The notes beneath the pieces are model-generated. The model had not been told where the DNA came from and made no database searches. It saw nothing but the letters and a program-made list of their open reading frames with translations. A program made the position numbers and the translations under genes. 64,000 nt of DNA from an archaeon (GTDB lineage: Archaea; Nanobdellota; Nanobdellia; Woesearchaeales; GW2011-AR9): assembly GCA_023259115.1 (NCBI GenBank), contig JAHFQW010000003.1, forward strand, positions 46,346 to 110,345, in the 5' to 3' direction. Shown piece by piece: positions 38,830 to 54,684 of the stretch. How positions within the stretch are numbered: position 1 is the stretch's first letter; the number at the start of each line of letters is the position of its first letter.

Positions 38830-38908
38830 AGAATCACTCTCACGATGTTTATGTTGGCTTTTTAGGTGTGTTTGGAAGAAATCAATGTCTATTTAAAGAT
38901 TTATGAAA

Positions 38909-39475: not shown

Positions 39476-39559
39476 AGAGATAGCAAAAAAAGAAAGAGAA
39501 TAAAAAGGTTTCTCTTATTTTTGGGAAGTGATTGGGGTGTAGGTTATTTTTTACACAAC

Positions 39560-40813
39560 CTATTCTACAACTAATGTGCCAGACATGCCACGCCAATCTT
39601 CACAGCTGCTACAAGTATAGGTAAAAGTGCCTTTGGTTAGGGCATCAAATTCTATAGTAGTTGGTCCGGAAATCTCTTTTTGAACACCCAAGTCTTTTAT
39701 AGCGAAAGTGAATGCAATGTTTTCTGGCCGCAGGGTTAAAATGACGTGATCGTTTTGTTTGACAATAATTTTATCAGAGCTGAAAAACCATTTTTTTGCA
39801 CCTAATGAGACTTGGTGAGGATATGTTTTTACTGAAGTTGTTGATGTGCTGGAAGTTGAGGTCGGTGATGAAGTGGAGGCCTGAGCTTGCGTACTTGTTG
39901 ATGTACTTGGTGCTGTACCTTGAGTACTAATAGGGGGTGTAGATGTGCTGGCGGGTTTTGTTGCAGCTGTTGAAGATACATTGGTTGTTTTTGAAGTTGT
40001 GGATGTTGTTTTCGATGCAGATGAATCTTTTATGTTAGATGTAGATGAACTGGCAGATTTTGGATCTGCTTTTGAAGTATCTGAAACAGATTTTGAAACA
40101 GAATTATCTGAGGCAGTTAAATCGAAGCCTTGCGGAAAGAATAATTTACCATCTTTTGTGACGTAAGAGTCGACATCTTGACCGGCGACAGATAAAGTTA
40201 CTTTGTAAAAATTGCCGACATCAATGGTCTTTTTGGCAACGGCGGTAAAAGGAGGCTGCAAGAGCTTAGTGTTGACATACGTTAAAGCTTTTGCCTGTGC
40301 GTCGTTTAATGAGAGGGTTTGAAGGGGGGTTTCTTTGGTAAATCTAAAACCTTGCGTAAAAACGGCAAAGATGAGTAAGATTATCAAAATCCCGGTGAAT
40401 GCTTGCCAGGTAGAGGCATCTTTAAAGAAACTCTCATTGTCAGATGCAGGTTTACTTTTCTCTTCTGCCCAAGGGTTCACGGGGGAGGTGATATCTAAGC
40501 CGGAGGTTTTGATGGATTTGACTTCTTTGAGCTCTTCTTTGGCAGAGCTGATAGTCATTTCTTCATCAGTGTATGTTTCAACTTTGATCGGATCCATTTT
40601 GACTTCTGGGGTTTTAGCTTTTCCTGATTTGACACTAACTTTGGCAAGTGCTTCTTTTGCGGCTAATTCTTTGGCAGATTTTTCGGCGATGCGTTTTAGG
40701 GCTAGCGCTTTACGTTCATGTTTAGCTTTGAGTACCATATGTTCCTCCGGGGTTTCGTCCTCGACAAATTCTTCACTATAATCATTGAGCTCGTCTAGTT
40801 GTTTTTGCTCCAT
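39560..40813 (-). CDS. Membrane protein with S/T-rich linker and a C-terminal cupredoxin-like domain lacking a full copper site
   Basis: Acidic N-terminus; TM helix (ILIILLIFAVF); S/T low-complexity stretch; C-terminal FTYTCSSCEDWRGMSGTLVV resembles the cupredoxin C..H..M loop but lacks the His. Confidence 0.4.
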   Translation of the reverse strand: MEQKQLDELNDYSEEFVEDETPEEHMVLKAKHERKALALKRIAEKSAKELAAKEALAKVSVKSGKAKTPEVKMDPIKVETYTDEEMTISSAKEELKEVKSIKTSGLDITSPVNPWAEEKSKPASDNESFFKDASTWQAFTGILIILLIFAVFTQGFRFTKETPLQTLSLNDAQAKALTYVNTKLLQPPFTAVAKKTIDVGNFYKVTLSVAGQDVDSYVTKDGKLFFPQGFDLTASDNSVSKSVSDTSKADPKSASSSTSNIKDSSASKTTSTTSKTTNVSSTAATKPASTSTPPISTQGTAPSTSTSTQAQASTSSPTSTSSTSTTSVKTYPHQVSLGAKKWFFSSDKIIVKQNDHVILTLRPENIAFTFAIKDLGVQKEISGPTTIEFDALTKGTFTYTCSSCEDWRGMSGTLVVE

Positions 40814-40965
40814 CGATTTTCACCTTTTTTAAAGTTGAAAAGTGAGGAGGAAGAATAATTTATAAAGATTTAGCTAGTTTAACAGTTAGTTTTAACTCTA
40901 TTTATTTTTGGGAAAAGTGTAAAAAAAATGTTGAAAATTATTTATTGATTGATTGATTCGAGAAA

Positions 40966-41682
40966 TTATTTATTGGTTATGCTGACAATTTTTCCATCAC
41001 GAAGGGAAATAGTTCGCTGGGCATGACGAACTAATGATTGGTCGTGCGTGACTAAGATTATGGTTTTTTTTTCTTTTTCGTGCAAGGTGGTTAAGAGTTC
41101 CATGATTTGTTTACCGGATTGGGAATCGAGGTTGCCAGTTGGTTCATCAGCTAAGATTATCTCGGGATTGTTTACTAACGCTCGAGCAATGGCAACACGC
41201 TGCTGCTGGCCACCAGATAATTCGTTGGGACGATGATGCATTCTATCGGCTAATCCCACAAGGGCGAGTAATTCTTTGGCACGCTCGATACGTTGTGTTT
41301 GGGGAACATTTTGAAAAATGGTTGGGAGGATGACATTTTCGAGGGCACTGAGAGTGTGGATGAGGTTGAATTGTTGGAAAACAAAGCCAATTTTTTTTCC
41401 ACGTAATTGAGCCAGAGCCGATTCGGAGAGATGACTGAGGTCTTTTTTTTCAAGCAGGATATGACCGCGAGTGGGAATGTCGAGAATGCCGACAAGATTC
41501 ATTAACGTTGATTTACCGCTTCCAGAGGGGCCTAAGATTGTGACAAATTCTCCTTTATAAATTGATACAGAGACGCCTCTGAGTACATCAAGTGATTCCG
41601 AACCCATTTGGTAGGTTTTCCAAACATCTTGTAACTCGAGGAGGATTTCTTTTTTGGGGAAATGGGTTTTTGCAGAGTTCAT
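40966..41682 (-). CDS. ABC transporter ATP-binding protein (MacB/LolD family)
   Basis: Walker [10 protein letters not shown]; signature [15 protein letters not shown]; Walker [12 protein letters not shown]. Confidence 0.85.
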
Positions 41683-41772
41683 GTTGAATTCTATTTTTCT
41701 ATTTGAGTATATTAATATTTAACGAATTGTGAGGATTATTCAAAGTTCTCTATAAATATTTATTCTAAATAT

Positions 41773-42990
41773 TCATTCGTACCTCAAACTATCTATAGCA
41801 TTGAGTTTAGAGGCTTTGCGAGCAGGGGTGAAGCCGGATATGCAGCCAATGATGAATGAGAAAAAGATGATGGCGAGCAGTTGTGTCCATTGAAATTGGA
41901 TGACAAGTAGTGATCCGATAAATTGGCTAAATATATATTCAATGATTTTGGCAAAGAGCATGCCTATGAGAACTCCGAGAATACCACCAATAAGACCATA
42001 TAAGCCTGATTCAATTAGAAATAAAGTTAAGATTTGCCGGTTGGTGGCGCCGATGGCTTTAAACAGGCCAATTTCTTTGGTGCGCTGCAGAACGGCGGTG
42101 AACATGGTGTTCATGATACCAATACCTCCGACAAAGAGAGAAATGGCGGCGATGCCTATGAGTACAACTTGGACGATGTTAAGAACGGTGTCAAAAGTAG
42201 AGACGAGTTGCTGGGGTGTTTGAATACTGAAGTCTTCTTTATCTTCTTTGAGGTGACGCGATTTGCGAAGTTCTTTTTTTATTTTTGCGTCCATGAGATT
42301 AAGGTCTTCTCCGGGATTGATTTGGACGAAAATAAGACCTAACTCATTGTTTTTTTGAAATAATTCTTGATAGGTGTCTATTGGAATGATGGCGGATTTA
42401 TCATCTTGGGGAGAGCCGGTTTTTTGCCAGAAGCCAATTATTTTGAATTCGTGTTCTTTAATGAGGATTTTATTTCCCAACGAGATATCTTTACCAAAGA
42501 GGTCGGGATTGGTATATTCACTGCCTAGAACGACTTTATAACGATCCCCGGAGGCAATATTACGTCCTTGGGCAATTTTATAACTTTGAGCACTGTTAAT
42601 GAGAGTATTTTCCTCTTTGTTGGTGGGAAAACCGTCTACAAAAAAGTAGCGTGCCTCGTTGTTGAATTCGATTTTACTGCTGCTGTATAAGAAGCCGGCG
42701 GCTTGTTTTACTCCGGATACTTTGCGGATAACATCCATGTCATGGGTGGTTATTTTTATCGCGTCAATGGAGAGACCGGCTGTGAGAGGATTTCCTTTGG
42801 CGGTGATGATTAATTTGTCGTTGCCTAATGCGGAAACTTGGCCGGTGATGGCTTGTTGAAGGCCTTGGCCAAGATTGATTAAAGAAACAACGGAGGCAAT
42901 GCCTATAATGATCCCAAAGAGAGTGAGAAGGGAGCGAAGTTTACGATTATGCATCTCTTTCCAGGGGATGAGGAAGTAGTCTTTGATCAT
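41773..42990 (-). CDS. ABC transporter permease, FtsX / MacB-like
   Basis: N-terminal TM helix, large extracytoplasmic domain, C-terminal 3-TM FtsX domain (QRTKEIGLFKAIGAT). Confidence 0.8.
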   Translation of the reverse strand: MIKDYFLIPWKEMHNRKLRSLLTLFGIIIGIASVVSLINLGQGLQQAITGQVSALGNDKLIITAKGNPLTAGLSIDAIKITTHDMDVIRKVSGVKQAAGFLYSSSKIEFNNEARYFFVDGFPTNKEENTLINSAQSYKIAQGRNIASGDRYKVVLGSEYTNPDLFGKDISLGNKILIKEHEFKIIGFWQKTGSPQDDKSAIIPIDTYQELFQKNNELGLIFVQINPGEDLNLMDAKIKKELRKSRHLKEDKEDFSIQTPQQLVSTFDTVLNIVQVVLIGIAAISLFVGGIGIMNTMFTAVLQRTKEIGLFKAIGATNRQILTLFLIESGLYGLIGGILGVLIGMLFAKIIEYIFSQFIGSLLVIQFQWTQLLAIIFFSFIIGCISGFTPARKASKLNAIDSLRYE

Positions 42991-43066
42991 GTGGTTTATG
43001 GTCTGTTGTTTTTTTTATGATTAGTTTTATTATATTATGATGATATCGTGATGATATTTTACGATA

Positions 43067-44278
43067 TTACTTACGCAAGGCATCGATGACTTGGAGTTGC
43101 GCGGCTTGTTTAGCAGGGAGAACACCGGAGATAATCCCCACACTAAATGAGAATAATAGGGCGGAGAGAAGCAGCCAGGAGGATATTTCGGCGTGGATTA
43201 AGACTGATTCAAATATTTGATAGGTGATAAATTCGACTAGTTTACTGATGAGGATACCTAGAGTTACGCCGATGATACCTCCTAAAAGACCAAGCATGCC
43301 GGATTCTATGAGGAAGAGGATAAGAATTTCTCGACGTGTGGCGCCGATGGCTTTGAGCAGGCCGATTTCTTTGGTGCGTTCTAACACGGCGGTGTACATG
43401 GTGTTCATGATGCCAACGCCTCCAACAAGTAAAGAGATACTGGCGATGCCTATGAGAACTCCTTCGATTATGAGAAGAATGGTATTAAATGTGGCAATAA
43501 GAGTTTGCGGAGTTTGAATGATGAAATCTTCTTTGCTCTTCTCTACATTACGGGATTTACGTAGTTCTTTTTTAAGTGAATCGGCAACGCTTGCAAGATC
43601 GGCGCTTTTTTGAATGCGAATGGCAATAATATCATAATCATCTTTAATTCCAAGCAGAGAACGGTAAGATTCCTCGGGAATAACGAGGGTGTCATCACGC
43701 TGGGGATTACCTGATTTTTTTAAAATGCCCACAATAGTAAATTGTTTTTGCTGGAGGAGAATTTTATCACGCAAAATGGGATCATGTTCAAAAAAGCCGT
43801 GCGCGAGATTATATCCTATTAAGACGCCAGGGCTGTTTTTTTCAGGAAATTTGCCTTCTTGAATTTGATAATCGTTTGCTTCGATTACGAGGTCTTGTTC
43901 TTGGGAATTTTCGGGATAAGAAACAGCATAGGTATATTTTTGTTCGTTTTTGAATTCTAATTGAGTTATACGAATTAGACGACCAACGGCGAGATCAACG
44001 TCTTTGGTTCTATCAATGGCGATTTTATCTTTTTTTGTGAGAGGAGACGCGACAGCCGTGCCAGGGGGGCCAAAGCCTGAACCTGCGGCTTGTACGATGA
44101 GCTTATCAGAGCCGAGTTTTAAGAATTGAGACGCGATGGCGTTTTGCAGGCCTTGGGAGAGGGTGATTAAAGCGACAACGGCAGCAATACCCACAAAGAT
44201 GCCAAGCATGGTGAGCCAGGAGCGCAGTTTACGTTGTTTGACACTGCGGTAAGCTAACTTGAAATAATCTTGTATCAT
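43067..44278 (-). CDS. ABC transporter permease, FtsX / MacB-like (second copy)
   Basis: Same architecture (ERTKEIGLLKAIGAT). Start trimmed to MIQDYFKLAYR to remove the run-on into the upstream gene. Confidence 0.75.
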   Translation of the reverse strand: MIQDYFKLAYRSVKQRKLRSWLTMLGIFVGIAAVVALITLSQGLQNAIASQFLKLGSDKLIVQAAGSGFGPPGTAVASPLTKKDKIAIDRTKDVDLAVGRLIRITQLEFKNEQKYTYAVSYPENSQEQDLVIEANDYQIQEGKFPEKNSPGVLIGYNLAHGFFEHDPILRDKILLQQKQFTIVGILKKSGNPQRDDTLVIPEESYRSLLGIKDDYDIIAIRIQKSADLASVADSLKKELRKSRNVEKSKEDFIIQTPQTLIATFNTILLIIEGVLIGIASISLLVGGVGIMNTMYTAVLERTKEIGLLKAIGATRREILILFLIESGMLGLLGGIIGVTLGILISKLVEFITYQIFESVLIHAEISSWLLLSALLFSFSVGIISGVLPAKQAAQLQVIDALRK

Positions 44279-44292
44279 TGATAGTTGAAGAT

Positions 44293-45543
44293 TTATTGAT
44301 ATTTGAGGATCTTTTTGAGAGTGAGGTTGTATTTTCTGTAGGCAACATAACCACCAATGGAGAGAAAGAGTATTACGATGTAGACCCACGTGTAATTGGT
44401 GGGAATTTTTCCGTATGTTTCAAGTTGAGAAGTGGTGTAGAGGTTCATGGTTAGGTCGAATTGCTGCTGGAACTGTTTGCCATTGGCATCAAAGTATTTG
44501 AGTTTAATGGGAAGATGAAGAAGCTTTGTGTTGGGAGTGATGTAGATTTCTAATTCTTCACTTTGGGTGTCGTCGGCATCGATATTTCCTATATAAAAAT
44601 AATCGTTGGGGGAGAGAAGAGTGTATTCGTCACTTGGTAGAACATATAGTTGTAGGTAACGAATGTCGGCGGTGCCGGGATTGGCGATTTCAATGGTGAT
44701 TTTACCGTTTTCTGCGGCTTGCAAAACGGAGGTTTTTTTAATGAAAGGTTGCACTTTTGGGATGTCACCTAAAGAGATGGCGAGAAGTTCTTGGGTTGTG
44801 AATAATTTACCTTTCTCGTCATAATAGCTGATTTCAAGAGGGACTTTGTATAGGCCGGCAGCGCCTTTGGGGTCGGCGATGAGATTGAAGGTGATGGCTT
44901 TTTGATAGCCAGAGGGTAACTGAGCGATAATTCTTTCTGAAGAGGATTGGTAGGGAGCGAAAGGAATGCCTGAAGAAGTGAGATTGAGTTTGAATTTTAA
45001 ATTGCGTAAGAGAGAATCTGCAAGATTTTTGATTGTTATGGTGGCTTGCGTTGATTCACCGGGTTTGATTTGTTCAGGATCAAAGGAGATAGAGGTAATA
45101 TCTAAAATGGAGTCTTGGGTTTGAATGTGGAGGAGAAATTCGTTGTTGGTGTAACTTATGCCGGATTCACCAAATTTTACGTTGAGTTCGAGTTCGAGAT
45201 CACCTTCGGTTGCTTGTTCATCTATTTTTAATTTGTATTCAACGATAATGGCATTAGCACCGGAGTTGAGGGCACGAAGTTTACCAATATTTTTTTGAGC
45301 AACATCGCCGTATAAACTCACGGGGTATTGCGGAAGAAGGGTGACTAGGGCATCGTTATTTGTCTCACTGCCATTATTCTCAATTTTGAATTTGACGGTG
45401 ACTATATCGCCAGGCTGTACGGGGTCGGGTGTTTGTGACATTAAGGTTACGTGAATACTAGGAGTTGAGGATGTGCCGTAGGCGGAAACGAGAGGAAATA
45501 TACAGAGAACGAGGAAAATGAAGAGGGGGAATTTTTTTGCCAT
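44293..45543 (-). CDS. Exported, C-terminally anchored protein; first gene of the ABC-transporter operon
   Basis: Signal peptide (LFIFLVLCIFPLVSAYG); beta-rich repeats; C-terminal TM helix (VYIVILFLSIGGYVAY). Confidence 0.35.
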   Translation of the reverse strand: MAKKFPLFIFLVLCIFPLVSAYGTSSTPSIHVTLMSQTPDPVQPGDIVTVKFKIENNGSETNNDALVTLLPQYPVSLYGDVAQKNIGKLRALNSGANAIIVEYKLKIDEQATEGDLELELNVKFGESGISYTNNEFLLHIQTQDSILDITSISFDPEQIKPGESTQATITIKNLADSLLRNLKFKLNLTSSGIPFAPYQSSSERIIAQLPSGYQKAITFNLIADPKGAAGLYKVPLEISYYDEKGKLFTTQELLAISLGDIPKVQPFIKKTSVLQAAENGKITIEIANPGTADIRYLQLYVLPSDEYTLLSPNDYFYIGNIDADDTQSEELEIYITPNTKLLHLPIKLKYFDANGKQFQQQFDLTMNLYTTSQLETYGKIPTNYTWVYIVILFLSIGGYVAYRKYNLTLKKILKYQ

Positions 45544-45625
45544 GTTATACCACGCTGCTTTTTGATGAGAGATTTAAGAGAGGTTTATTTATAAATGTTA
45601 TTGGAGATGAGGAAGAGAACAAAAG

Positions 45626-46630
45626 TTATTTTGCGGATGAAGAAGTTGCTGCGGTGTAGCGTTGCGTTAAAAGATGTTGCATGTAGGCTTTATCGGTGAG
45701 ACCGGTTTGTTTGTTGAGGATGCAATCGCTGTGTGGATGATTGAAATAAGGTTCAGTGTAGCGAGATTGGGTGAAATCGCACGTGGGATTGATGACACGA
45801 TGGATGGTTGCGGGTAAATTAGTTTTAATCTCTAATTTTTGGCCAATATTGATGACGGTGCTGTTTTTAATGTGAGGGATGTCTTGCCATTCACCATCAA
45901 TGAGCACTTGCAGACCTTTATTTGGTTCGTATAATGATGTTTTAAAGTTGCTATCTTTGTGTGAGCCTGCACGAATGGCTTTGGGCTGAGCGCTAGGTTG
46001 TGCAAGATCGTTGAGCATTTCTGTTGCAAGAGATTCAGAGATAGGAGAGAGGGGAGTATGGCAATAGTGAGTTAATAAATTGAGAAGGTATTGTTTGGAG
46101 GGGTAAAAATTAAGACGCATGACACTATTGCCTCCGGTGGCATCTTCTTTGAGCTCATCTTGGGGGAAGCCAAGGTATTGGGCGATGGCTTGCAGAAGAA
46201 GATGAGATTTTTCTTCTTGCAGATGATACGCGGCAAGGAGAGTTGACTTAAATTGAGGAAGAATATTTGAGGAAGGCCAGATGTTGGCATCATATCGGGA
46301 GTCGTTTTCTCGACCAAATTCGAAGTATTCTTTGAGATCAGGATATTTTTCGCCTAGAGCGGTCTCGCCACCAAGGGGTATGAAGCCACGTTCACCACGA
46401 GTTTGGGGGAGGAATAGATGCATTTTTTGTTCAAATGAGATGGTTTCAAAGAAGAGATGTTCTTGCTTGCGAACTTGAGACATGATGTTCTCCAAGCCTA
46501 CATTTTTACAGACAACAAAACCGGTTTGTTTTAATGATTTGCCAATGCCATCAATGAAACAATTTTTTATCTGTGATGAGGAAGAGAGGTAATCTTGAAA
46601 GTTGAGAATACGTACTTCTTGTGCATCCAT
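45626..46630 (-). CDS. 2-oxoglutarate / Fe(II)-dependent oxygenase superfamily protein
   Basis: HKD...H facial-triad spacing (RAGSHKDSNF ... ATIHRV) and VMRLNFYP region typical of 2OG-FeII_Oxy. Confidence 0.55.
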   Translation of the reverse strand: MDAQEVRILNFQDYLSSSSQIKNCFIDGIGKSLKQTGFVVCKNVGLENIMSQVRKQEHLFFETISFEQKMHLFLPQTRGERGFIPLGGETALGEKYPDLKEYFEFGRENDSRYDANIWPSSNILPQFKSTLLAAYHLQEEKSHLLLQAIAQYLGFPQDELKEDATGGNSVMRLNFYPSKQYLLNLLTHYCHTPLSPISESLATEMLNDLAQPSAQPKAIRAGSHKDSNFKTSLYEPNKGLQVLIDGEWQDIPHIKNSTVINIGQKLEIKTNLPATIHRVINPTCDFTQSRYTEPYFNHPHSDCILNKQTGLTDKAYMQHLLTQRYTAATSSSAK

Positions 46631-46719
46631 TAGACAGAAGGTCGAGCGGGGATTTATATGTTTTATGGGAATGGAGTAGAAAGATGAGCATGGGAGAATA
46701 AGGGGAATAAGGGAGAGGG

Positions 46720-46898
46720 GAGTTTAAGTATGTATTAAGTTAGGTAACAGAAAGTGAGGGCAGGCCGTCTGCTGTGGCGAAAATGATATGTTTTTCGATG
46801 ATTTTCGCTTCTTAACCTTATCTTACGAATGGTATAGCACAGCAGACATCTTGGCCAAGCCCGCACTTTTAATGTGAACTTAATACATACGAGTTTAA
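46720..46898. mobile_element. MITE (family 2, copy a) with 14-bp TIRs and 8-bp target-site duplication
   Basis: TIR GTATGTATTAAGTT (46728-46741) / AACTTAATACATAC (46877-46890). TSD GAGTTTAA at 46720-46727 and 46891-46898. Internal long imperfect hairpin GTGAGGGCAGGCCGTCTGCTGTG...CACAGCAGACATCTTGGCCAAGCCCGCAC. Confidence 0.6.
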
Positions 46899-46913
46899 GA
46901 AAGGTATATAAAC

Positions 46914-47420
46914 GTGAAAAAAATGATTGTGACCATGACGTGGTTATCAATGTTCGGGGGTTGGGGAAGTGGAAAAAATTCTACGAATTCTACGAAGAAG
47001 AGTGATTCGGAGGCGCAATTACGGGGGTTTATTTTAGATATTCGTACATATATCAACAAGAGATTGTATAATCCTGATTCTGAGCTGGTGCCGCTGCAGT
47101 TTTTGGATCGATCAACACGAGAAAATGCGGCAAATTCAACGGCAACGGTACAGCATTTTTTTGAGAGAACAAAAGAACAGTTGCAGACCTATAAAAGTGT
47201 TATTAGTGCAATAGCTGTACCAGAACAGGACCGCTTCTCACGAAATGCGAAAATAAAAACGGTAGAGGTATTGGAGGGGATGATGGGGCATTGTCAATTT
47301 TTTTATGATCGAGCAGAGTCGTATAGGACATATCAACAAGATGGAACGGTGAAGAGATTATTGAATCATACTATTAAAAATTATCTGGCAACGCTGGAGA
47401 TGTTTTCTGAGGTTAATTAA
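46914..47420 (+). CDS. Hypothetical protein (168 aa) bracketed by two MITEs
   Basis: ORF starts 15 bp after MITE 2a; MITE 2b begins 1 bp after its stop. No recognisable domain. Confidence 0.35.
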   Translation: MKKMIVTMTWLSMFGGWGSGKNSTNSTKKSDSEAQLRGFILDIRTYINKRLYNPDSELVPLQFLDRSTRENAANSTATVQHFFERTKEQLQTYKSVISAIAVPEQDRFSRNAKIKTVEVLEGMMGHCQFFYDRAESYRTYQQDGTVKRLLNHTIKNYLATLEMFSEVN

Positions 47421-47421
47421 T

Positions 47422-47664
47422 TTTTTAGAGTATGTATTGAAGTCTGGTTACAAAAAGTGCTGGCAGGCCGTCTGGTACTTGAGCAAGCAAGAGCGTTGCG
47501 AGCTCTTGCAAGTCACAGCAAAAATTAGCCCTCGGATCCGCGGTTCCTTGCAGTGTCTCTCGATTGTTTTTGCGTTTTAATCTTGTCTGACGAGTAGCGT
47601 AGTGCGACAGACATCTTGGCCAAGCCAGCACTTTTTCAGGTAAACTTAATACATACTTTTTAGA
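47422..47664. mobile_element. MITE (family 2, copy b) with TIRs and 8-bp target-site duplication
   Basis: TIR GTATGTATTGAAGT (47430-) / AACTTAATACATAC (47643-47656). TSD TTTTTAGA at 47422-47429 and 47657-47664. Internal hairpin GTGCTGGCAGGCCGTCTG...CAGACATCTTGGCCAAGCCAGCAC carries a compensatory change relative to copy a. Confidence 0.6.
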
Positions 47665-47701
47665 GAAAAGTATATAAAAAGCAAGTGGTTAGTGATTAAA
47701 G

Positions 47702-48136
47702 ATGGTGTTAAAAGAGATGTTTTCATTTGGGCAAAAGAAGGTGATTGAGTTAGATCCATACCAAGATTTGAAAGAGCGGGTGCAAGATGCGAATTCTTAT
47801 GTTATGAACAAGATTGGGGATCCGAAGGCGGAAATGTTTCAATTGCAGTTAGGGATTGTGCCAAAAGAGAGGATACAACGTTTTTTTTATGATGTGGGAA
47901 GCAATTTGGAGAGGCATCGAGAGAGTGTGAAAGCGGAATTGCTTAGGCATAATCCTATGACGTTTCCCATTGATAAGAGAGAAGTGATTAAAGCACTGGG
48001 TGATTTGCGCGAGATGTGCAAACATTTGGAGGAGAATCCTCAGCATTTTCGGGTGCGGACAACGGAGTTGCAGCATAAAGCACAAAATTATATGAAAGCG
48101 GCGGATGTGTACCGCAACTTATCTACTCGAAGATAG
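47702..48136 (+). CDS. Hypothetical protein (144 aa), possibly HEPN-like
   Basis: Alpha-helical. Weak similarity to the C-terminus of the preceding 168-aa protein. Lies upstream of an NTase gene, the usual HEPN/MNT arrangement. No firm motif. Confidence 0.3.
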   Translation: MVLKEMFSFGQKKVIELDPYQDLKERVQDANSYVMNKIGDPKAEMFQLQLGIVPKERIQRFFYDVGSNLERHRESVKAELLRHNPMTFPIDKREVIKALGDLREMCKHLEENPQHFRVRTTELQHKAQNYMKAADVYRNLSTRR

Positions 48137-48178
48137 TTAACAAAGCTTAATAATGTTCTAAACGCTTCTTAGTATGGT

Positions 48179-48988
48179 ATGGAGTTTAAGATTTATAAAA
48201 AAGAGAATGAAAATATTCATCGCTACCCTAGCGATGATATTAAGACGGCGCAGATTTTTTGTGAAGAGCTGCAGAAAGAGTTAGCGGATTTTTTGGTGGC
48301 AGTTGTGGTGTTTGGGAGTTCGGTGCGTCGAGAGAATACAAGCAAGAGTGATATTGATGTGCTGGTTATTACGGATGATACGGAATATGCGATTACGGAG
48401 CCGTTAATTGAGGGGTATCGCATTATTGTGGAGAATCTAATCACAAAGATTTCGTTGAAGCTACATGTGACATCGATGACGTTTACGTCGTTTTGGGAGC
48501 ATGTGAAGTCGGGGGATCCGGTGGTTGTGAATATTTTACGGGATGGGATTGCGCTGCATGATAGAGGGTGTTATAATCCACTGCAGATATTATTGAAACA
48601 AGGAAGAATTCGACCCTCGGAGGAGAGTATTTGGCGATATTTTGGCCGAGCGCCTAAAACGTTATTGAATTCGCGCTGGCATGTGTTGCAAGCGACACTT
48701 GATTTGTATTGGACAGTGATTGATTCGGCGCATGCGGCACTGATGCGTAAAGGAGAGATTCCACCTACACCAGAACATGTGGCGGATATGTTAGATAAAG
48801 TGTATGTACAGCATAAGTTACTGGAGCCAAAGTATGTGGAGATGATGCGACGATTCTATAAGATGAGCAAGATGATTTCTCATCGTGAGATCAAAGAGTT
48901 AAGAGGAGAGGAGTATGAGCAGTATTATCAGCAAGCGGATGAGTTTGTACGCAGAATGAAGAAGTTGATTGAGAAGGGTGTGTATTGA
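48179..48988 (+). CDS. Nucleotidyltransferase-domain protein (MNT-like N-terminus, helical C-terminal extension)
   Basis: VAVVVFGSSVRRENTSKSDIDVLVITDD is the minimal NTase GS...DxD motif; about 150 aa of helical C-terminal extension. Confidence 0.55.
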   Translation: MEFKIYKKENENIHRYPSDDIKTAQIFCEELQKELADFLVAVVVFGSSVRRENTSKSDIDVLVITDDTEYAITEPLIEGYRIIVENLITKISLKLHVTSMTFTSFWEHVKSGDPVVVNILRDGIALHDRGCYNPLQILLKQGRIRPSEESIWRYFGRAPKTLLNSRWHVLQATLDLYWTVIDSAHAALMRKGEIPPTPEHVADMLDKVYVQHKLLEPKYVEMMRRFYKMSKMISHREIKELRGEEYEQYYQQADEFVRRMKKLIEKGVY

Positions 48989-49125
48989 ATTCATTTCTGT
49001 ATTTAGTTGATACATTTTAGTTGATGAATACATGTTTCTCTTGAAAGAGAGTAACGTAATAATCATCATTACAAATAAAAACCGATTAGAAATAAAAACC
49101 TTTAAGTATTGTTCTTTCTTTCTTA

Positions 49126-50841
49126 TTGTTTATGGAAGATAGTAAGAAAGAAGTAGTTTTGAAGTATGTTCTGAAGAATGCATTGGAGTTTAGCGGACGT
49201 GCGAATAGTAAAGTGGTATTGGGGGCGGTGCTCAAAGAGGATGGGACGCTCAAGAGTGATGTTCCTGCGCTAATGAACGAGATTGAGACAATTATTAAGG
49301 AAGTGCAAAGCCAGAGTGTAGAGATGATTCGTCAACGGTTACTCGCTGTTGCACCAGAGTTATTGCAGGCAAAAGTGGAGGACAAAGTTGAGGGGCCACT
49401 CAAACCGTTACCTAATGCGGTGATGGGAAGTGTGGTATTGCGTATTGCACCATCGCCAAGTGGACCCCTTCATATTGGACATGCGTATGGAGTGTCGCTG
49501 AATTATGAATATGCAAAGATGTATCATGGTAAGTTGATTTTACGAATTGAAGATACGAATGCAGAGAATATTTATCCAGGGGCGTATGAGTTAATTGAGC
49601 GAGATGCGCAGTGGTTGACGGAAAATGGAATTAGCCAGGTGGTTGTGCAATCGGCACGTTTGGGAACCTATTATGATTATGCGGAGAAGTTAGTGCAAGC
49701 GGGAAAGGCGTATATTTGCACGTGTGCGGCAGATGTGTGGCGGGAAATGAAAAATAGGGGGGAGGCGTGTGCTTGTCGAGGGTTACTTGTGGAAGAGCAG
49801 AGGGTGAGGTACGCAAAGTTGTTTAGCTCGTATGCGGAAGGAGAAGCAGTTGTTCGGTTAAAGACAGATATTCAACATAAAAATCCGGCGATGCGTGATT
49901 TTGGGATTATGCGTATTGTTGAGCATGTGCATCCACGTACAGGGAAAGAACAGAGGGTGTGGCCATTGATGGTGTATTCTGTGGCGATTGATGATCATGA
50001 GTTAGGTGTTACACATGTGTTGAATGGGAAAGATCATGCGGATAATGCGGCAAAAGAAAAAATGATTATGGATTGTTTTGGATGGAAGCATCCTGAGTAC
50101 AAGCATTGGGGCAGGATTAATTTTGAGGGCTATGATTTGAGTACGACCAAGACGCGTATGGCAATTGAGAGAGGAGAGTTTCGCGGATGGGATGATATTC
50201 GATTGCCTTTTATGCCGGCACTGCGCAAGCGAGGGTTTCAGGCAGCGGCGTTTCGTACATTTGCACTAGAGATCGGGTTGAGTTTAAATGATAAAACAGT
50301 GGCTTGGGAAGAATTTTGGAAAAGTATTTTTGCATTTAACAAGGATATTGTGGAGAGTGCGGCAAATCGGTATTATTTTGTGGATGATCCTGTGAAAATT
50401 AAAGTGGAGAAGTTTGACGGCAGAGAGATTTTACTGGATTTACATCCAGATTATCCGGCAAGAGGAAAACGAAAGTTTATTGTGAAAAATGATTTTTATG
50501 TTTCTTCTCGAGATATAGAGAAGATGTCAGAAGGACCAGTACATCGATTGATGGATTGCTGTAACATGGCGTTGCGAGAAGGAAAGTGGTATTTTACATC
50601 GCAGGGATATGAAGATTATAAAGACTCAGATAAAAAGGGGATAATTATTCATTGGCTGCCGGCAGAAGAGTTTATCAAAGCAGAAGTGTTGCTGGAGAAT
50701 GGAGAGGTGGCTCGAGGATATGCGGAACGAGCATTGTTATATCGCAAAGTGGGGGAAGTTGTGCAGTTGGAGCGACGATACTTTGCGTGCATTCAAGAGA
50801 TTAAAGATGACAAAGTGGTGCTTTGGTATTTGCATAAGTGA
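49126..50841 (+). CDS. gltX: Glutamyl-tRNA synthetase (archaeal type)
   Basis: Class I HIGH motif (PSGPLHIGHAYG); archaeal/eukaryotic-type catalytic core and anticodon-binding domain; 571 aa. Confidence 0.85.
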   Translation: MFMEDSKKEVVLKYVLKNALEFSGRANSKVVLGAVLKEDGTLKSDVPALMNEIETIIKEVQSQSVEMIRQRLLAVAPELLQAKVEDKVEGPLKPLPNAVMGSVVLRIAPSPSGPLHIGHAYGVSLNYEYAKMYHGKLILRIEDTNAENIYPGAYELIERDAQWLTENGISQVVVQSARLGTYYDYAEKLVQAGKAYICTCAADVWREMKNRGEACACRGLLVEEQRVRYAKLFSSYAEGEAVVRLKTDIQHKNPAMRDFGIMRIVEHVHPRTGKEQRVWPLMVYSVAIDDHELGVTHVLNGKDHADNAAKEKMIMDCFGWKHPEYKHWGRINFEGYDLSTTKTRMAIERGEFRGWDDIRLPFMPALRKRGFQAAAFRTFALEIGLSLNDKTVAWEEFWKSIFAFNKDIVESAANRYYFVDDPVKIKVEKFDGREILLDLHPDYPARGKRKFIVKNDFYVSSRDIEKMSEGPVHRLMDCCNMALREGKWYFTSQGYEDYKDSDKKGIIIHWLPAEEFIKAEVLLENGEVARGYAERALLYRKVGEVVQLERRYFACIQEIKDDKVVLWYLHK

Positions 50842-50934
50842 ATGGTTGAGTAATGAGATTGAGAGTGATTGGTGAATAGGAAAATGATGTTTAGAGAAGT
50901 TTGATTAAAAAGAGAGCGCAAAGGAGGGGGAATT

Positions 50935-51555
50935 ATGGGAAAAATAAGTCGAGATACGCCATTGGCGGAAATTACATTACGTCGTTATGAAAAACCTACG
51001 ATGAACGATAGAGAACTTGTGCGAAAGTTTTGTTTGTCGGTAGGGTTATTACAGCCAGGAGATTCTCGGGACGTAGTGGTTGATGTGTTCCATGTACTAT
51101 TGCAAGCAAAAGGCAGACGGGAAGAGCTGCATTCTGAAGAAATTAAGAATAATGTGATGGATAATCGAAAGCAGGGGGGATTGCCGATGCTGGGAATTGC
51201 ATCTTCGAATATTCGAAGGCAGTTGAAGCGATTGAAAGATTTGTATTTGATTGAGACGAATGCGAATTTGTATAGAGTTACAGAGTTTGGGCATTTATCA
51301 GAAGTATTTGAGGAGAAGGTGCAAAATTTTATTTTAAGTTCGGTTATGTCGCGGGTGAAGGATTATTTGCAGAAAATGGATGAGGAGTTTCCTGCGGGAG
51401 CGCATAGTGTTGTGCAGAAGAGTGTGGCGCAAGGTGGAGGAGTTGAGGGATTAGGAGCATTAAAAGAGAGAGGAGCATATGATAAGTATGATAAAGTACA
51501 TATTCAATCGGACTTTTTGGTGATGGTGAAGAGCGCGATGCGACGAAAAGAGTGA
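50935..51555 (+). CDS. Hypothetical protein, possibly winged-helix
   Basis: IRRQLKRLKDLYLIETNANLYRVTEFG resembles a wHTH recognition helix plus wing. Weak. Confidence 0.3.
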   Translation: MGKISRDTPLAEITLRRYEKPTMNDRELVRKFCLSVGLLQPGDSRDVVVDVFHVLLQAKGRREELHSEEIKNNVMDNRKQGGLPMLGIASSNIRRQLKRLKDLYLIETNANLYRVTEFGHLSEVFEEKVQNFILSSVMSRVKDYLQKMDEEFPAGAHSVVQKSVAQGGGVEGLGALKERGAYDKYDKVHIQSDFLVMVKSAMRRKE

Positions 51556-51652
51556 AGAGTGATTTAGAGGAGTAGGAATACATGATGACCTGTTGTTTTT
51601 GTTATACCTATTCTATTCTGTAAATCATTAAAAAGCAGATGTTTATTTTTGG

Positions 51653-53407
51653 TTGCTGATGGCGTTTGATGAAAAATTACAGAGAGTATATAGGCAGAGA
51701 CGAGAGGAGGCGTGGTTGAAATCTCGTATGATTGAGGGGATACCAAGTTTGCAAGATGATTTTTCTGAAGTGAGACATTGCGTAGTTTCTTCTGAGGAAG
51801 GAATTGAGGCGTTAGTGGGAGATGCGCAAGTTATTTTGATGACGGGAGGATATTTTGGGGATGAAGCGAAAGGAAAATGGGGGAATGCGCTGGCAACAAA
51901 AGTGGACATGGTGGTGCGACCTAATTCGGGAGCAAATACGGGACGAACTATTTGTTACAAAGCAGAGAAGTTGAGTTTACATCTGGTACCAACGGGGTTG
52001 CTTGAAGGGATAAGAGCGATTATTGGATCTGAGACGGTTGGGGATCCGATTAGTTTAGATGAAGAGGAGTTGGCGTTATTTCGAGCGAGGGAAATTGATT
52101 ATAGTTTGCTGGAGGTGGGAAATTTTTTTATTACAACACCGTATCACCGCATTATGGATGTGCTGGGGAGCGCATTGAATGGTTCGACGGGAGTGGGGAT
52201 TATGCCAACGCATAAGTCTATTAAAGGAAAATCGTGTCCCAGACTAGATGATTTGTTTAATAGCTCTACTCATTTACGAAGAGTTCTTTCAAAAGATCAT
52301 GAGAATTATGAAGGCTTTTTGGAGACAAAATTATTGAATCGAGATATGGTAGTTGAGCGTCTTTTAGAAATACAACAACGAAATAGACGAATAGTGCCAG
52401 AGTATGTTTTAGAGTTTGCCAAGTCGCGTGAACCAATTGAATTTTTAAATGAGTTATACGCAGAAAGAGTAGTGAGAAATATACATTTTCCCAAACGGGT
52501 GGATGCGAGTTATGAAGTGAAGAGAGCGCTACAACGAGGAGAGCGGGTGTTATTAGAAGTGACACAGAGTTATCTCTTGAGCAATGCACGGCAACAAGGA
52601 TATCGCTATTCGACATCGGCAGATGTGACGGCGTTAGGGGCGTTGACGTCACTGGGGATTTCTCCGATGCGCTATTCTACGCGGGTGATTAATGTGAATA
52701 AGTTTCCTGGAGCGTCACGAGTGGGACCGGGAGATATTCCAGGTTCTTTTGTGGCACAAAATCATTTTGCGGAGAATAAGATTACGTCACTGAGCGAGTT
52801 AGGAGAGGCTTGTGTTGATTTTAATGCGATTTGTCAGATGTATTTTAGTGCGATTGGGAAGAATGGGATTTTGCAACCGGTTACCTATACAGATGCAACG
52901 GGAACGTATGAAATTGGAGAAGCGATGGCGATTGCCAATGCGCGTACGTTTGATGAGAGAGGAGCAACAACGGGCAAGCCACGGATTACGGGTTTATTTG
53001 ATTGTGTGTTGGGCAGACTCGTGGCAGAGGAACAAGGACCGTATACGGTTATTTCTTGCATGGATAGAGGAAATGTGTGTGACAAAGTGGGATTGGTGGT
53101 AGGGTATGTGGTGTCGTTACCAGAAGAGGTTGAGAGGATTGATTGTAATGGAATGATGTATACAACGGGCAAAGTGATTGTGCCTGGAGATCAAGTACCA
53201 ACAAGTGATGTACTGCAGTATTGTGTGCCAATTATTAAAGTGATGGAAGGTTGGAAGAGCACGCCACTTGGGAATTTGCATCCAGGAGAAGAGCTGCCTT
53301 TGGCAGTTTCTAGTGTTATTGGGGCAATTGAGAAATATACGGGATTTTTGGTTATGGCAATTGGAACGGGACCGGAAACCAATGAGGCGTTGTATTTGAA
53401 GCGGTAA
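51653..53407 (+). CDS. Adenylosuccinate-synthetase-like protein (divergent PurA family, 584 aa)
   Basis: GDEAKGKW (vs GDEGKGK); SGANTGRT in place of GGHNAGHT; NGSTGVGIMPTH (vs IGTTGRGIGPAY); GATTGKPRITGLFD (vs GATTGRRRRTGWLD); IGTGPETNE (vs ISTGPDRTE). Has an N-terminal extension and internal insertions. Confidence 0.55.
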   Translation: MLMAFDEKLQRVYRQRREEAWLKSRMIEGIPSLQDDFSEVRHCVVSSEEGIEALVGDAQVILMTGGYFGDEAKGKWGNALATKVDMVVRPNSGANTGRTICYKAEKLSLHLVPTGLLEGIRAIIGSETVGDPISLDEEELALFRAREIDYSLLEVGNFFITTPYHRIMDVLGSALNGSTGVGIMPTHKSIKGKSCPRLDDLFNSSTHLRRVLSKDHENYEGFLETKLLNRDMVVERLLEIQQRNRRIVPEYVLEFAKSREPIEFLNELYAERVVRNIHFPKRVDASYEVKRALQRGERVLLEVTQSYLLSNARQQGYRYSTSADVTALGALTSLGISPMRYSTRVINVNKFPGASRVGPGDIPGSFVAQNHFAENKITSLSELGEACVDFNAICQMYFSAIGKNGILQPVTYTDATGTYEIGEAMAIANARTFDERGATTGKPRITGLFDCVLGRLVAEEQGPYTVISCMDRGNVCDKVGLVVGYVVSLPEEVERIDCNGMMYTTGKVIVPGDQVPTSDVLQYCVPIIKVMEGWKSTPLGNLHPGEELPLAVSSVIGAIEKYTGFLVMAIGTGPETNEALYLKR

Positions 53408-53454
53408 ATAAATGAGGTTGTTCTTTAATTGTTTTTGAAGAAGTAATAATTCTT

Positions 53455-53500
53455 ATAGATAATTCTGTGAGTGATATTACATTTTTGTACAGAATTGTCC
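53455..53500. repeat. ATAGATAATTCTGT...ACAGAATTGTCC hairpin module (third copy)
   Basis: Same family as 5992-6033 and 20311-20353: 12-13-bp inverted arms around an AT-rich 19-nt spacer. Confidence 0.45.
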
Positions 53501-53534
53501 ATAATAATAAGAAATAAAAAATGAAAATAAAAAC

Positions 53535-53798
53535 TTAAATAATATCTTCTTCAGCAACGACGATGAAATCGCCGGTGGCAATGACCGCAGAGAAAGGAAT
53601 CAAGACTTGGCCTTCTTTGGTGCGTTCTAATTCCATGCGTTCGGTATAAGTGGTAGGATTGCGCAAGACGACGTGAATTAATTCACCTGAGCCGACTTCG
53701 AAAATCATGTCACCAACTTCTCCGAATTTCTTGCCTGATTTTGATACTACGGTTTTCCCGAGTAATTCCTTAGAAAAAAGCTTGTCTTTTTCTGCCAT
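53535..53798 (-). CDS. PRC-barrel domain protein
   Basis: LLGKTVVSKSGKKFGEVGDMIFEVGSGELIHVVL matches archaeal stand-alone PRC-barrel proteins of about 85 aa. Confidence 0.6.
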   Translation of the reverse strand: MAEKDKLFSKELLGKTVVSKSGKKFGEVGDMIFEVGSGELIHVVLRNPTTYTERMELERTKEGQVLIPFSAVIATGDFIVVAEEDII

Positions 53799-53889
53799 AA
53801 TAATCCAACCTCATTTTTTATTTATTTTCTAGTGATATTGACTAAGAGGCAGAGGAGAAAGTGACTATATAAAGTTTACGGTGATGGAT

Positions 53890-54035
53890 TAGTTATTGTG
53901 CTGTTTCTATAGTAGAATCCCATGATTTTTTGAGCATTTGTGGAATTCTACTAAGAAGTACTTTGAATATTGAGGATTATATGGGTTATTCAAAGTTCTC
54001 TATAGTAGAATCCCATGATTTTCAAACATATTCTA
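53890..54035. repeat. Mosaic hairpin-repeat locus D
   Basis: TCTATAGTAGAATCCCATGATTTT appears twice (53921 and 54013), bracketing TGTGGAATTCTACTA (its inverse) and the AAGTACTTTGAATATTGAGGATTATATGGGTTATTCAAAGT palindrome. Confidence 0.55.
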
Positions 54036-54123
54036 ACAGAAGGAGGTAGAGGGAAATTGAGGTGTATAGGGAATGAAGATGTATAAAATGGCGCGTCTAG
54101 AGTAAAATGATATAAGATTCTGC

Positions 54124-54504: not shown

Positions 54505-54684
54505 TAGGAATCACACTCTTTTTGGTTTTTTATTATCTGATTAGTTATCTGATTAGTTTACTATATGTTTGTGTTTAATTAAGAGAATTATATAAACTTT
54601 ATGCGGATGGAGAAGATAGGTTCATGGGGAATTAAAAGATATTTTTGAGGAATATTAATAAATAAGACGAGTTGTAATTTAATT

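Follow-up and report, generated by a model that had tools for sequence, protein, structure and literature searches.

The 64,000-nucleotide stretch of archaeal DNA analysed here (the window) carries two similar segments with inverted-repeat ends, one on each side of a small gene, and thus raises the question of whether these segments are mobile elements and, if so, why they sit where they do. A sequence-only reading of the locus took them for two independent insertions of a non-autonomous element next to a toxin–antitoxin or defence-like gene pair; our analyses uphold the first of these two claims and speak against the second.

The host is a DPANN archaeon of the Woesearchaeota type, with leaderless genes whose TATA boxes lie ~26–30 nt 5' of the ATG, and with the archaeal marker genes PolB, Orc1/Cdc6, aIF2-alpha and ABCE1. 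A bacterial host, a possibility raised by the occurrence of sigma-70 and Lgt genes, was dismissed on account of these markers and the TATA/leaderless pattern; sigma-70 genes have already been known from Woesearchaeota (PMC8204110). Mechanically defined coding ORFs make up ~81% of the window, with intergenic DNA amounting to 12.3 kb of the 64 kb. The features of the locus are as follows.

46720–46727: left target-site duplication (TSD) of copy a, GAGTTTAA, found as a single copy in the unoccupied site of a related strain (L009)
46728–46890, plus strand: very probable MITE, copy a, 163 bp, with terminal inverted repeats (TIRs) at 46728–46741 and 46877–46890
46891–46898: right TSD of copy a, GAGTTTAA
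46899–46912, plus strand: predicted core promoter of the 161/168-aa gene, BRE-like GAAAGG and TATA box TATATAAA, directly abutting the TSD
46935–47420, plus strand: native small gene flanked by the two elements, 161 aa if read from ATG 46935, of no known family
47422–47429: left TSD of copy b, TTTTTAGA
47430–47656, plus strand: very probable MITE, copy b, 227 bp, with the left TIR at 47430–47443 and the right TIR at 47643–47656
47657–47664: right TSD of copy b, TTTTTAGA
47665–47678, plus strand: predicted core promoter of the 144-aa gene, BRE-like GAAAAG and TATA box TATATAAA, directly abutting the TSD
47702–48136, plus strand: lineage-restricted helical protein of 144 aa, a context gene outside the element
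48179–48988, plus strand: fused Pol-beta-type nucleotidyltransferase with a C-terminal helical domain, 269 aa, a conserved Woesearchaeota gene, likewise context outside the element

Both elements could be read at precisely the positions first proposed for them, and the duplications at their flanks are indeed perfect (8/8), with a different sequence for each copy. Given a per-base match probability of 0.268, derived from the composition of the window, the chance of one such flank match is p = 2.6e-5 and that of both together 6.9e-10. Since the base 3' of each right-hand duplicate is a G, identical to the first base of the element, the length of the TSD is ambiguous between 8 and 9 bp, with 8 bp being favoured by the symmetry of the TIRs. 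The 14-bp TIRs of copy a (GTATGTATTAAGTT and AACTTAATACATAC) are perfect, and the exact 14-mer occurs in the 64-kb window at element termini only; the description of the TIRs as shared by both copies holds, except for one inserted nucleotide in the left TIR of copy b (GTATGTATTGAAGT). The sub-terminal motif AAAGTGnnGGC is present at all four element ends. The two copies are only ~77–84% identical and differ by indels, including two interior segments that are extra in copy b relative to copy a, and they were thus presumably derived from different source copies. The ORFs within the elements are spurious (68–71 aa) and include no transposase gene. The peptide AWPRCL does occur, as had been remarked, in both minus-strand element ORFs, but no relatives of these ORFs, used as a protein probe for further copies in the Logan/ENA assemblies, were found among 5.8 billion proteins.

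The case for transposition comes from comparison with the related strain (93–98% nucleotide identity), in which both sites are empty and each 8-mer is present once. At site a, a single GAGTTTAA is directly followed by GAAAGGTATATAAACGTG, and at site b a single TTTTTAGA is followed by GAAAAATATATAAAA; the intergenic gap at site b measures 46 bp in this strain versus 281 bp in the window, the difference of 235 bp equalling 227 + 8 bp. The corresponding gaps in an outgroup (L022) are 95 bp and 86 bp, without elements, and the elements are likewise absent from more distant relatives, so the polarity of the change is that of insertion in the lineage of the window. The unoccupied sites with their single 8-mers therefore bear out the proposal of two independent transposition events, as opposed to local duplications, and we consider it very probable that the elements are true MITEs, i.e. 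that a non-autonomous TIR element inserted twice, separately, on either side of a native gene. An alternative reading as integron attC sites or a cassette array is ruled out by the TSDs and the empty sites. A cut-and-paste transposase of the DDE type, supplied in trans, very probably moved each copy on its own, making an 8-bp staggered cut in the target; the enzyme presumably reads the 14-bp TIR and probably also the sub-terminal AAAGTGnnGGC. The locus thus gives a base-resolved view of transposition that took place recently in an uncultivated Woesearchaeon, the filled and the empty alleles both being available in public data, and it shows that the population has, or until recently had, an active transposase.

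Archaeal MITEs are known from Sulfolobus, Halobacterium and Haloquadratum and have been reported at high densities from DPANN archaea, among them Ca. Altiarchaeum and a Woesearchaeon (PMC10969869, PMC11602168). The elements described here resemble them in being 163–227 bp long, non-coding, TIR-bounded, TSD-flanked, intergenic, hairpin-forming and polymorphic for presence or absence between strains, but differ in that their sequence family is absent from the collections searched and that the copies seen all lie equally far from a TATA box. They are an ordinary kind of element representing a previously unrecorded family, and their placement at promoter edges is the sole unusual thing about them. 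According to the ISfinder family tables, IS66/ISBst12 elements generate 8–9-bp duplications and have GTA... termini, with GTAA as the canonical terminus. The present elements are similar in their 8- (or 9-) bp TSDs and in termini beginning with GTA, but these read GTAT rather than GTAA. Duplications of 8 bp are also made by several further IS families that are present in archaea, namely IS6, IS1595/ISH4, ISH6, IS5/ISH1, IS256 and ISM1.

The part of the host genome surveyed for element copies comprised ~71.5 kb (the 64-kb window and ~7.5 kb of new flank), and it contains two complete copies only, plus one incomplete candidate; no transposase gene is encoded in the window. The candidate is a third, incomplete TIR-like terminus, GTACGTATTAAGTCTG, at L021:13369, ~1.2 kb beyond the window. 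Two Logan assemblies stop 141 and 167 nt inside this putative third element, of which 168 nt are readable. Its sub-terminal similarity (p ~0.08) is not significant alone, and about one TIR match with at most two mismatches is expected by chance in the DNA searched. A candidate 8-bp target sequence at this terminus reads GGGTGGTT/AACCACCC. The third element might be the autonomous partner of the family. Breaks in assembly also affect copy b: within it, the Logan contigs of two samples stop at 47479 and resume at 47613, the positions being identical in both samples. Together, the third terminus and the assembly breaks inside copy b and the third element suggest that further members of the family are present in the genome.

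Beyond the host, searches of GTDB representative genomes, JGI metagenomes, IMG/VR, plasmid records and phage records yielded neither a related copy nor an autonomous element whose TIRs match. The conserved 19-mer core has four matches in the GTDB representative genomes (Acidobacteriota and a cyanobacterium), about the number expected by chance, and in blastn comparisons of these the bare 19–20-mer alone aligns; the core has no match in JGI metagenomes and IMG/VR. A pattern combining the TIR with the sub-terminal motif matched eight times in metagenomes and once in viral contigs, none of these matches continuing into GGC..GGCC or having a partner TIR. The left-end motif was not encountered in viral contigs, and blastn searches with copy a, copy b and the third fragment gave no matches in plasmid and phage records.

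What distinguishes the two insertions is their position. Both elements adjoin a common 14-nt BRE/TATA motif, which is oriented alike at the two sites and agrees there in 13/14 positions, and both end exactly 14 nt before the TATA box, a distance made up of the 8-bp TSD and the 6-bp BRE; from the element end to the leaderless ATG there are 44 nt for copy a and 45 nt for copy b. The BRE/TATA motif is over-represented in the window (nine matches versus 2.2 expected), where at least 15 genes have TATA[TA]A at -26 to -32 and no Shine–Dalgarno sequence is seen. An exact GAAAAGTATATAAA is found upstream of the homologue of the bracketed gene in the outgroup, and the promoter of the 144-aa gene is conserved in the related strain, the outgroup and L029. 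Since the insertions end 14 nt before the TATA box, they leave the predicted core promoter of either gene (161 aa and 144 aa) intact, and any regulatory DNA further upstream has been displaced by 171 bp (copy a) or 235 bp (copy b). Correia elements (CREE) of Neisseria are MITEs that also occur mainly just upstream of genes and can affect transcription (PMC10969869). They have a TA duplication, sigma-70 promoters of their own and IHF sites, whereas the present elements have an 8-bp duplication and an archaeal host and leave the native BRE/TATA intact rather than replacing it.

The repeated placement at promoter edges has one of two likely sources: the transposition complex may choose such targets, or, the genome being compact, none but harmless insertions may have survived. 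According to the latter explanation, to which we give an even chance, the elements are true MITEs that insert anywhere, but in this gene-dense genome they have persisted only where the upstream gene and the core promoter were spared. Tolerated positions are scarce, with ORFs taking up most of the window, and at the unoccupied site b the spacer from the stop codon to the BRE is just 9 nt long. An 8-bp target thus fits there in only two registers, and the position of copy b is explicable by selection alone. The same does not apply so readily to site a, where the free spacer between divergent promoters measures ~61 nt (~54 registers), yet the insertion occupies the extreme promoter-proximal register. 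The third candidate terminus, moreover, shows the same 14-nt distance to a TATA box, with a leaderless ATG 43 nt away, even though its TSD/BRE sequence bears no relation to those of the two copies. The probability that a random TIR-like match would fall 43–45 nt 5' of a start codon and point away from it is ~0.001 (50 genes × 3 offsets divided by 128,000 positions and orientations).

Target choice has, in our estimation, somewhat less than an even chance of being the source of this placement. A more specific version, which we regard as rather unlikely, is that the family and its transposase would pick targets by promoter architecture and not by sequence, placing the 8-bp staggered cut where the BRE begins on its upstream side, 14 nt away from the TATA box; DNA bent or bound by TBP/TFB is perhaps what would be sensed. 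Position-specific integration is familiar from Ty3, which inserts at Pol III start sites, and from TRE5-A of Dictyostelium, which inserts ~48 bp upstream of tRNA genes; both are retroelements, and their tethering to TFIIIB/TFIIIC has been demonstrated. The present elements share with them a constant spacing from a promoter complex that contains TBP and the lack of a conserved target sequence, but they are archaeal DNA elements and number three cases, one of them incomplete. If architecture-guided targeting were true, the family would be an archaeal DNA-transposon counterpart of Ty3 and TRE5-A, its strategy being that of a ‘safe haven’ within a very compact genome. Were a genome-wide census to confirm the 14-nt distance, this would be a rare instance of a prokaryotic DNA transposon guided to its targets by promoters, and would help to explain how mobile elements hold their ground in extremely compact genomes.

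It is also conceivable, albeit improbable, that the elements serve, or have come to serve, as structured nucleic-acid modules with a function of their own, for instance as transcription terminators or insulators between adjacent genes or as small RNA genes, with the hairpin maintained by selection. The copies are indeed predicted to form hairpins, and strong ones: the DNA folds at -39.3 kcal/mol (z = -9.5) for copy a and at -41.6 kcal/mol (z = -3.8) for copy b, the latter copy also containing oligo-T tracts and being placed after a stop codon and before the next promoter. However, inverted-repeat ends yield hairpins automatically, the elements have no match in Rfam either at the gathering scores or at E ≤ 1, and the related strain and the more distant relatives manage without them. 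The compensatory change that had been noted in the stem consists of one true swap, from G:C to T:A; the other position is an A.G mismatch in copy a corresponding to a C:G pair in copy b, so the covariation obtained from the two sequences comes down to a single pair. A concerted change in sub-terminal transposase-binding sites accounts for it as well as maintenance of the hairpin does.

The genes downstream of copy b had been thought to resemble a HEPN/MNT toxin–antitoxin or defence-like pair, in which case the MITEs would mark a mobile or variable island. We consider this very unlikely. The N-terminal domain of the 269-aa protein does match NTP_transf_2/Polbeta (Pfam NTP_transf_2, 3.6e-8) and, weakly, the MntA and PADLOC candidate nucleotidyltransferase models; its homologues are labelled ‘nucleotidyltransferase / UPF0332 family’ at JGI; and the residues of the Pol-beta GS...DxD motif (G46, S47, D58 and D60), a motif shared with HepT-MntA (type VII) systems, are invariant in 43 homologues. 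The Rx4-6H motif, however, is conserved in neither protein: no invariant R/H pair at this spacing exists among homologues in the C-terminal half of the 269-aa protein, and neither of the two Rx4-5H matches in the 144-aa protein is conserved. The NCBIfam scores are all far under the cut-offs (22.5 bits versus 60 for MntA_antitoxin, 23.6 versus 190 for HalB, and similarly for the ANT families).

Nor is the distribution of the 269-aa protein the patchy one of a defence gene. It has 1,142 homologues, the best 120 of which are 69–83% identical and nearly all 269 aa long; they belong to Woesearchaeota/Nanoarchaeota wherever the source names them, and in all the relatives inspected the gene keeps its place beside GluRS. 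HepT-MntA consists of two small proteins, whereas here there is one fused chain, for which the predicted structure suggests an N-terminal nucleotidyltransferase fold followed by a C-terminal helical domain, as in two-domain ANT/KNTase enzymes. The AF2 model has a mean pLDDT of 68 (mostly >85 in the N-terminal domain except for the loop 47–56, and 45–78 in the C-terminal half), and its best full-length Foldseek matches are AadA, ANT(9), ANT(4')/KNTase and HalB (E ~2e-5 to 3e-4). The 144-aa neighbour, with five representatives in 1.84 billion proteins and no match in family searches, contains no recognisable HEPN domain; it is modelled as a generic four-helix bundle that has no significant match in the PDB and to which HepT scores no better than talin/FAT bundles. 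The nucleotidyltransferase is thus better read as a conserved, lineage-wide gene residing beside GluRS than as a defence or toxin–antitoxin module.

As for the gene between the elements, the earlier reading had it correctly bracketed, but as a 168-aa ORF. This length results from the mechanical ORF start, GTG 46914, whereas the Logan gene call starts at ATG 46935 (161 aa), which is most likely the true start given the TATA-to-ATG spacing of other genes. Two elements in the same orientation around one orphan-like gene could suggest a composite transposon that brought the gene to the locus. This is scarcely credible, as each element has its own TSD and homologues of the gene occupy the same place without elements in the related strain (89% amino acid identity) and the outgroup (36%). 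The gene is native and not cargo of the elements; a composite transposon is thus refuted for its origin, although co-mobilisation in the future is possible.

Finally, the notion that local duplication or recombination created the 8-mers and the two similar segments without any transposition, which would suit copies just 540 bp apart around one gene and with no other complete copy found, has practically nothing left to recommend it, being already refuted by the unoccupied sites: the two TSDs are unlike each other and each is single at a clean empty site, and the copies are much more divergent (~77–84% identity with indels) than the surrounding DNA is between the strains (93–98%).

Direct reading of the window recovered the positions, the terminal inverted repeats (TIRs) and the perfect 8-bp target-site duplications (TSDs) that a sequence-only reading had assigned to two MITE insertions, copies a and b, bracketing a 168-aa ORF.

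The two elements and their duplications (window positions)
46728-46890: copy a, 163 bp, left end GTATGTATTAAGTT, right end AACTTAATACATAC
46720-46727 and 46891-46898: TSD of copy a, GAGTTTAA
47430-47656: copy b, 227 bp
47422-47429 and 47657-47664: TSD of copy b, TTTTTAGA

The 14-bp TIRs described for both copies hold for copy a, the left TIR of copy b carrying a 1-nt insertion. Within the 64 kb the exact TIR 14-mer is confined to the element termini, and looser matches (up to 3 mismatches) occur at chance level (13 versus 9.7 expected). At a match probability of 0.268 per base, the flanks of one copy agree at 8/8 positions with p = 2.6e-5, and those of both copies jointly with p = 6.9e-10; a TSD length of 9 bp is formally possible, because the G after each right-hand duplicate is also the first base of the element. 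Folded as DNA, the copies indeed form long imperfect hairpins (-39.3 kcal/mol, z = -9.5 for copy a; -41.6 kcal/mol, z = -3.8 for copy b), and AWPRCL is present in both spurious minus-strand ORFs. The copies are only about 77-84% identical, copy b has two additional interior segments (38 and 24 nt), and neither is a copy of the other. Of the compensatory change proposed for the outer stem, one G:C to T:A swap stands, the other position being an A.G mismatch in copy a and a C:G pair in copy b; because all four ends carry a sub-terminal AAAGTGnnGGC, the change can equally be attributed to a concerted change of predicted transposase-binding sites.

The history of the locus is clarified by the single non-identical relative of the 168-aa ORF among 5.8 billion proteins (P0002, 89% identity), which is carried on the Logan contig L009 (SRR14366766) of a close strain. 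This contig aligns with the window to the left and to the right of each element, at 93.0% nucleotide identity over the bracketed gene (L009 20-559 versus window 46891-47430) and 98.0% over the adjacent 144-aa region (L009 551-950 versus window 47657-48056). Read base by base, site a in L009 contains one GAGTTTAA followed directly by GAAAGGTATATAAACGTG, and site b one TTTTTAGA between ...GAGGTTAATTGAT and GAAAAATATATAAAA. The left flank at site a is limited to 19 nt, which are purine-rich, like the flank in the window, and not element sequence. L009 has 46 bp between the two genes and the window 281 bp; the extra 235 bp equal 227 + 8. In the outgroup locus L022 (GCA_053532095.1; NTase 83% identical), the same three genes occur with gaps of 95, 86 and 41 bp and the elements are absent, and the polarity is therefore read as insertion in the lineage of the window. 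At the sequence level, these comparisons demonstrate that both elements are true transposition events and, as originally proposed, two independent insertions, postdating the divergence from the L009 strain. Local duplication as their origin is ruled out by the empty sites in L009 together with the element-free L022, as is a composite transposon bringing in the bracketed gene, which sits there without elements in both relatives. The bracketed gene is the fastest evolving of the syntenic trio, with 36% amino acid identity to L022 versus 58% for the 144-aa protein and 83% for the NTase.

Archaea are known to carry MITEs, and DPANN genomes are reported to have high densities of them (PMC10969869, PMC11602168). 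Copy number and an autonomous partner aside, the elements described here display all testable MITE-defining features, and they represent a new sequence family of an already known kind. Searches for further copies and an autonomous partner yielded one TIR-like candidate, described below, and no copy or partner in the public collections searched: the conserved 19-mer gave four chance-level matches in GTDB representatives and none in JGI metagenomes or IMG/VR, a TIR plus sub-terminal pattern gave nine chance matches, none extending, and no related copy was retrieved with the left-end motif, by blastn of the elements against plasmids and phages, or with a protein probe from the spurious element ORFs. 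No transposase was found among window ORFs of at least 150 aa (a Pfam scan for most, precomputed Pfam listings for the rest). By end sequence, we take the nearest IS family to be IS66/ISBst12 (8-9-bp TSD, GTAA ends), the ends here being GTAT, not GTAA; 8-bp duplications are also produced by several other families occurring in archaea.

The window encodes a family-B DNA polymerase, Orc1/Cdc6, aIF2-alpha, ABCE1/RLI, a Rad50-like SMC and an archaeal-type GluRS, and sources name the NTase homologues Woesearchaeota or Nanoarchaeota. Its genes have TTTATATAAA-type boxes 26-30 nt 5' of the ATG and lack Shine-Dalgarno motifs, a pattern read as that of archaeal TATA boxes with leaderless mRNAs. This TATA-to-ATG spacing makes ATG 46935 the most likely start of the bracketed gene (161 aa, in agreement with the Logan call). 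The similarity between copies a and b extends past the right-hand TSDs into GAAAGGTATATAAA and GAAAAGTATATAAA (repeat D15), a stretch that belongs to the target DNA, not to the element; this BRE/TATA stretch is found also at unoccupied sites and 5' of orthologues in L022 and another relative (L029), and the motif is enriched in the window (9 matches versus 2.2 expected). Both copies, in the same orientation, end exactly 14 nt short of the TATA box, a distance made up of the 8-bp TSD and a 6-bp BRE-like hexamer; their distances from the leaderless ATG are 44 and 45 nt. The core promoters at both sites are intact, the former upstream DNA having moved 171 or 235 bp away.

A TIR scan of about 150 kb of loci, allowing up to 2 mismatches, returned one match, GTACGTATTAAGTCTG, at L021:13369, on a Logan contig of the same genome, about 1.2 kb past the window's right-hand edge. 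This terminus is similar to copy b at its left end (GTATGTATTGAAGTCTG), and outside it lie 14 nt (AACCACCC TACATC), then TTTTTATA, then, 43 nt away, the leaderless ATG of a 124-aa gene; the TSD/BRE sequence is unrelated to those at sites a and b. Chance predicts one such TIR-like match, and the sub-terminal similarity by itself does not reach significance (p about 0.08). The geometry carries the weight: a random match would lie 43-45 nt 5' of a start codon and face the right way with a probability of about 0.001, the 14-nt geometry having been recorded at copies a and b before this site was found. Two independent Logan assemblies stop 141 and 167 nt inside the candidate (L021 and also L032), and two assemblies likewise break at identical positions, 47479 and 47613, within copy b. 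Possibly, L021:13369-13536 is a third family member, perhaps an autonomous copy. The inner edge of this 168-nt fragment has an ATG (L021:13530) with a TATA-like box, ATAAAAGA, 30 nt 5' of it and within an inverted repeat GCTCCTC/GAGGAGC; an internal gene might start here.

Both elements inserted by a cut-and-paste-type reaction with an 8-bp staggered target cut, each at the upstream edge of one of two neighbouring core promoters, and were presumably mobilised in trans by a DDE transposase recognising the TIR and the sub-terminal AAAGTGnnGGC; more copies may reside elsewhere in the same genome. Harm to the flanking genes is probably slight, since the insertions preserve or duplicate the BRE/TATA and the oligo-T tract that follows the stop codon. 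Survival of only the harmless insertions is sufficient to explain the placement at site b, where the spacer is merely 9 nt. Target choice guided by promoter architecture is favoured by site a, where the element takes the register closest to the promoter in a spacer of about 61 nt, and by the third site, which shares the geometry with an unrelated TSD/BRE sequence; with three cases in all, one incomplete, we hold it as a tentative reading somewhat short of probable, and its stronger version, targeting by TBP/TFB sensing, seems rather unlikely. Among the nearest functional parallels for the placement, Correia elements sit upstream of genes, but use TA targets and carry their own promoters. A second parallel is offered by Ty3 and TRE5-A, which integrate position-specifically beside TBP-containing complexes. 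No account of insertion at a fixed offset from archaeal BRE/TATA promoters was found in our literature search, a weak indication that none exists. Transposition here is cleanly demonstrated yet ordinary in kind; of its features, the promoter-edge regularity alone merits genome-wide attention.

The defence angle drops out: profile searches detected no HEPN in either downstream protein, and the HEPN/MNT toxin-antitoxin or defence-like pair suggested by the sequence-only reading is rejected, given the lack of a conserved Rx4-6H, sub-cut-off MntA scores, a generic 144-aa bundle and NTase-GluRS synteny. The 144-aa protein, correctly described as helical, is modelled as a four-helix bundle (pLDDT 78; best PDB match E = 0.13), which talin or FAT domains match at least as well as HepT structures do (E 0.5-0.8, TM about 0.30 for HepT). 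Five relatives of this protein occur among 1.84 billion representatives, neither of its two Rx4-5H matches is conserved, and family searches gave no match; a homologue lies directly 5' of the NTase gene in the relatives L029 and L030 as well. The 269-aa protein is, as recognised before, a nucleotidyltransferase with a helical tail: its N-terminal domain is a standard Pol-beta NTase (Pfam NTP_transf_2, 3.6e-8; G46, S47, D58 and D60 invariant among homologues), and all scores against MntA, HalB and ANT models fall far under the curated cut-offs. The AF2 model (mean pLDDT 68) is confident in the N-terminal domain, with 45-78 in the C-terminal half; its best full-length matches are two-domain enzymes (AadA, ANT(9), ANT(4')/KNTase, HalB), whereas stand-alone MNT antitoxins align to the N-terminal half only. 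The protein has no invariant R and H at Rx4-6H spacing, and neither Pfam nor PDB profile search detected HEPN in its C-terminal half; the JGI label 'UPF0332' for homologues is a source name, not a test. Among its 1,142 homologues, which span Woesearchaeota and Nanoarchaeota, the 120 listed (P0003-P0122) show 69-83% identity, almost all have a length of exactly 269 aa, and GluRS adjoins the gene (48179-48988) in every relative examined. This unusual conservation and steady adjacency suggest a core function, possibly translation- or tRNA-related.

The window shows several further features. It encodes a 603/605-aa sigma-70-like protein (55580-57397; regions 2, 3, 4) and a prolipoprotein diacylglyceryl transferase (LGT; 54685-55491); sigma-70 genes in Woesearchaeota have been reported previously (PMC8204110). 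GC skew is extreme and strand-wide (+0.305 overall; +0.10 to +0.47 in every 2-kb bin, whatever the gene strand), its sign unchanged at the Orc1/Cdc6 gene; third codon positions, read on the coding strand, have a skew of +0.72 in plus-strand and -0.64 in minus-strand genes, and intergenic DNA one of +0.31. The syntenic L022 locus (1-14186), with the same gene orientation, has skew of opposite sign (-0.29), and four other relatives (L025, L027, L029, L030) range from near 0 to +0.15; among the DPANN papers listed, our literature search found none that mentions GC skew. A second dispersed intergenic repeat family has the conserved core GGGGTTATTCAAAGT..TCTATA.

Copies of the second repeat family (window positions)
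11590-11686, 28339-28435, 53908-54004: copies of ~97 nt
6162-6215, 29961-30014, 36592-36645, 41726-41754, 58049-58102, 7965-8002, 5958-5999: other copies

The longer copies begin TATAGAGG and contain a hairpin ACTTTGAAT...ATTCAAAGT. Most copies are situated immediately beyond the 3' ends of genes; they may represent a further MITE/REP-like family or a motif of the terminator type. An overlapping ENA contig, L007, is identical to the window over 36935-56630 save 3 SNPs, mosaic and divergent at 36646-36934 (the 3' end of the gene for malic enzyme), and impossible to align past 36643, where a different gene (840 aa) takes over; the break, which coincides with the repeat copy at 36592-36645, suggests a recombination or rearrangement boundary between strains. 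Direct repeats of 64 nt, 92% identical (17184-17247 and 18219-18282), flank one gene with a Bro-N domain (17262-18098, minus strand); the right-hand repeat forms the 3' end of the RNase HII gene (18223-19038), stop codon included, and the pair looks like an att-type duplication from a small (~1 kb) element integrated at the rnhB 3' end. Three overlapping 28-nt repeats with 14-nt spacing (TATGCTGATGAGGTTAAGCTTATGATGA...) occupy 19094-19149, in the short spacer beside the Orc1/Cdc6 gene (19169-20236).
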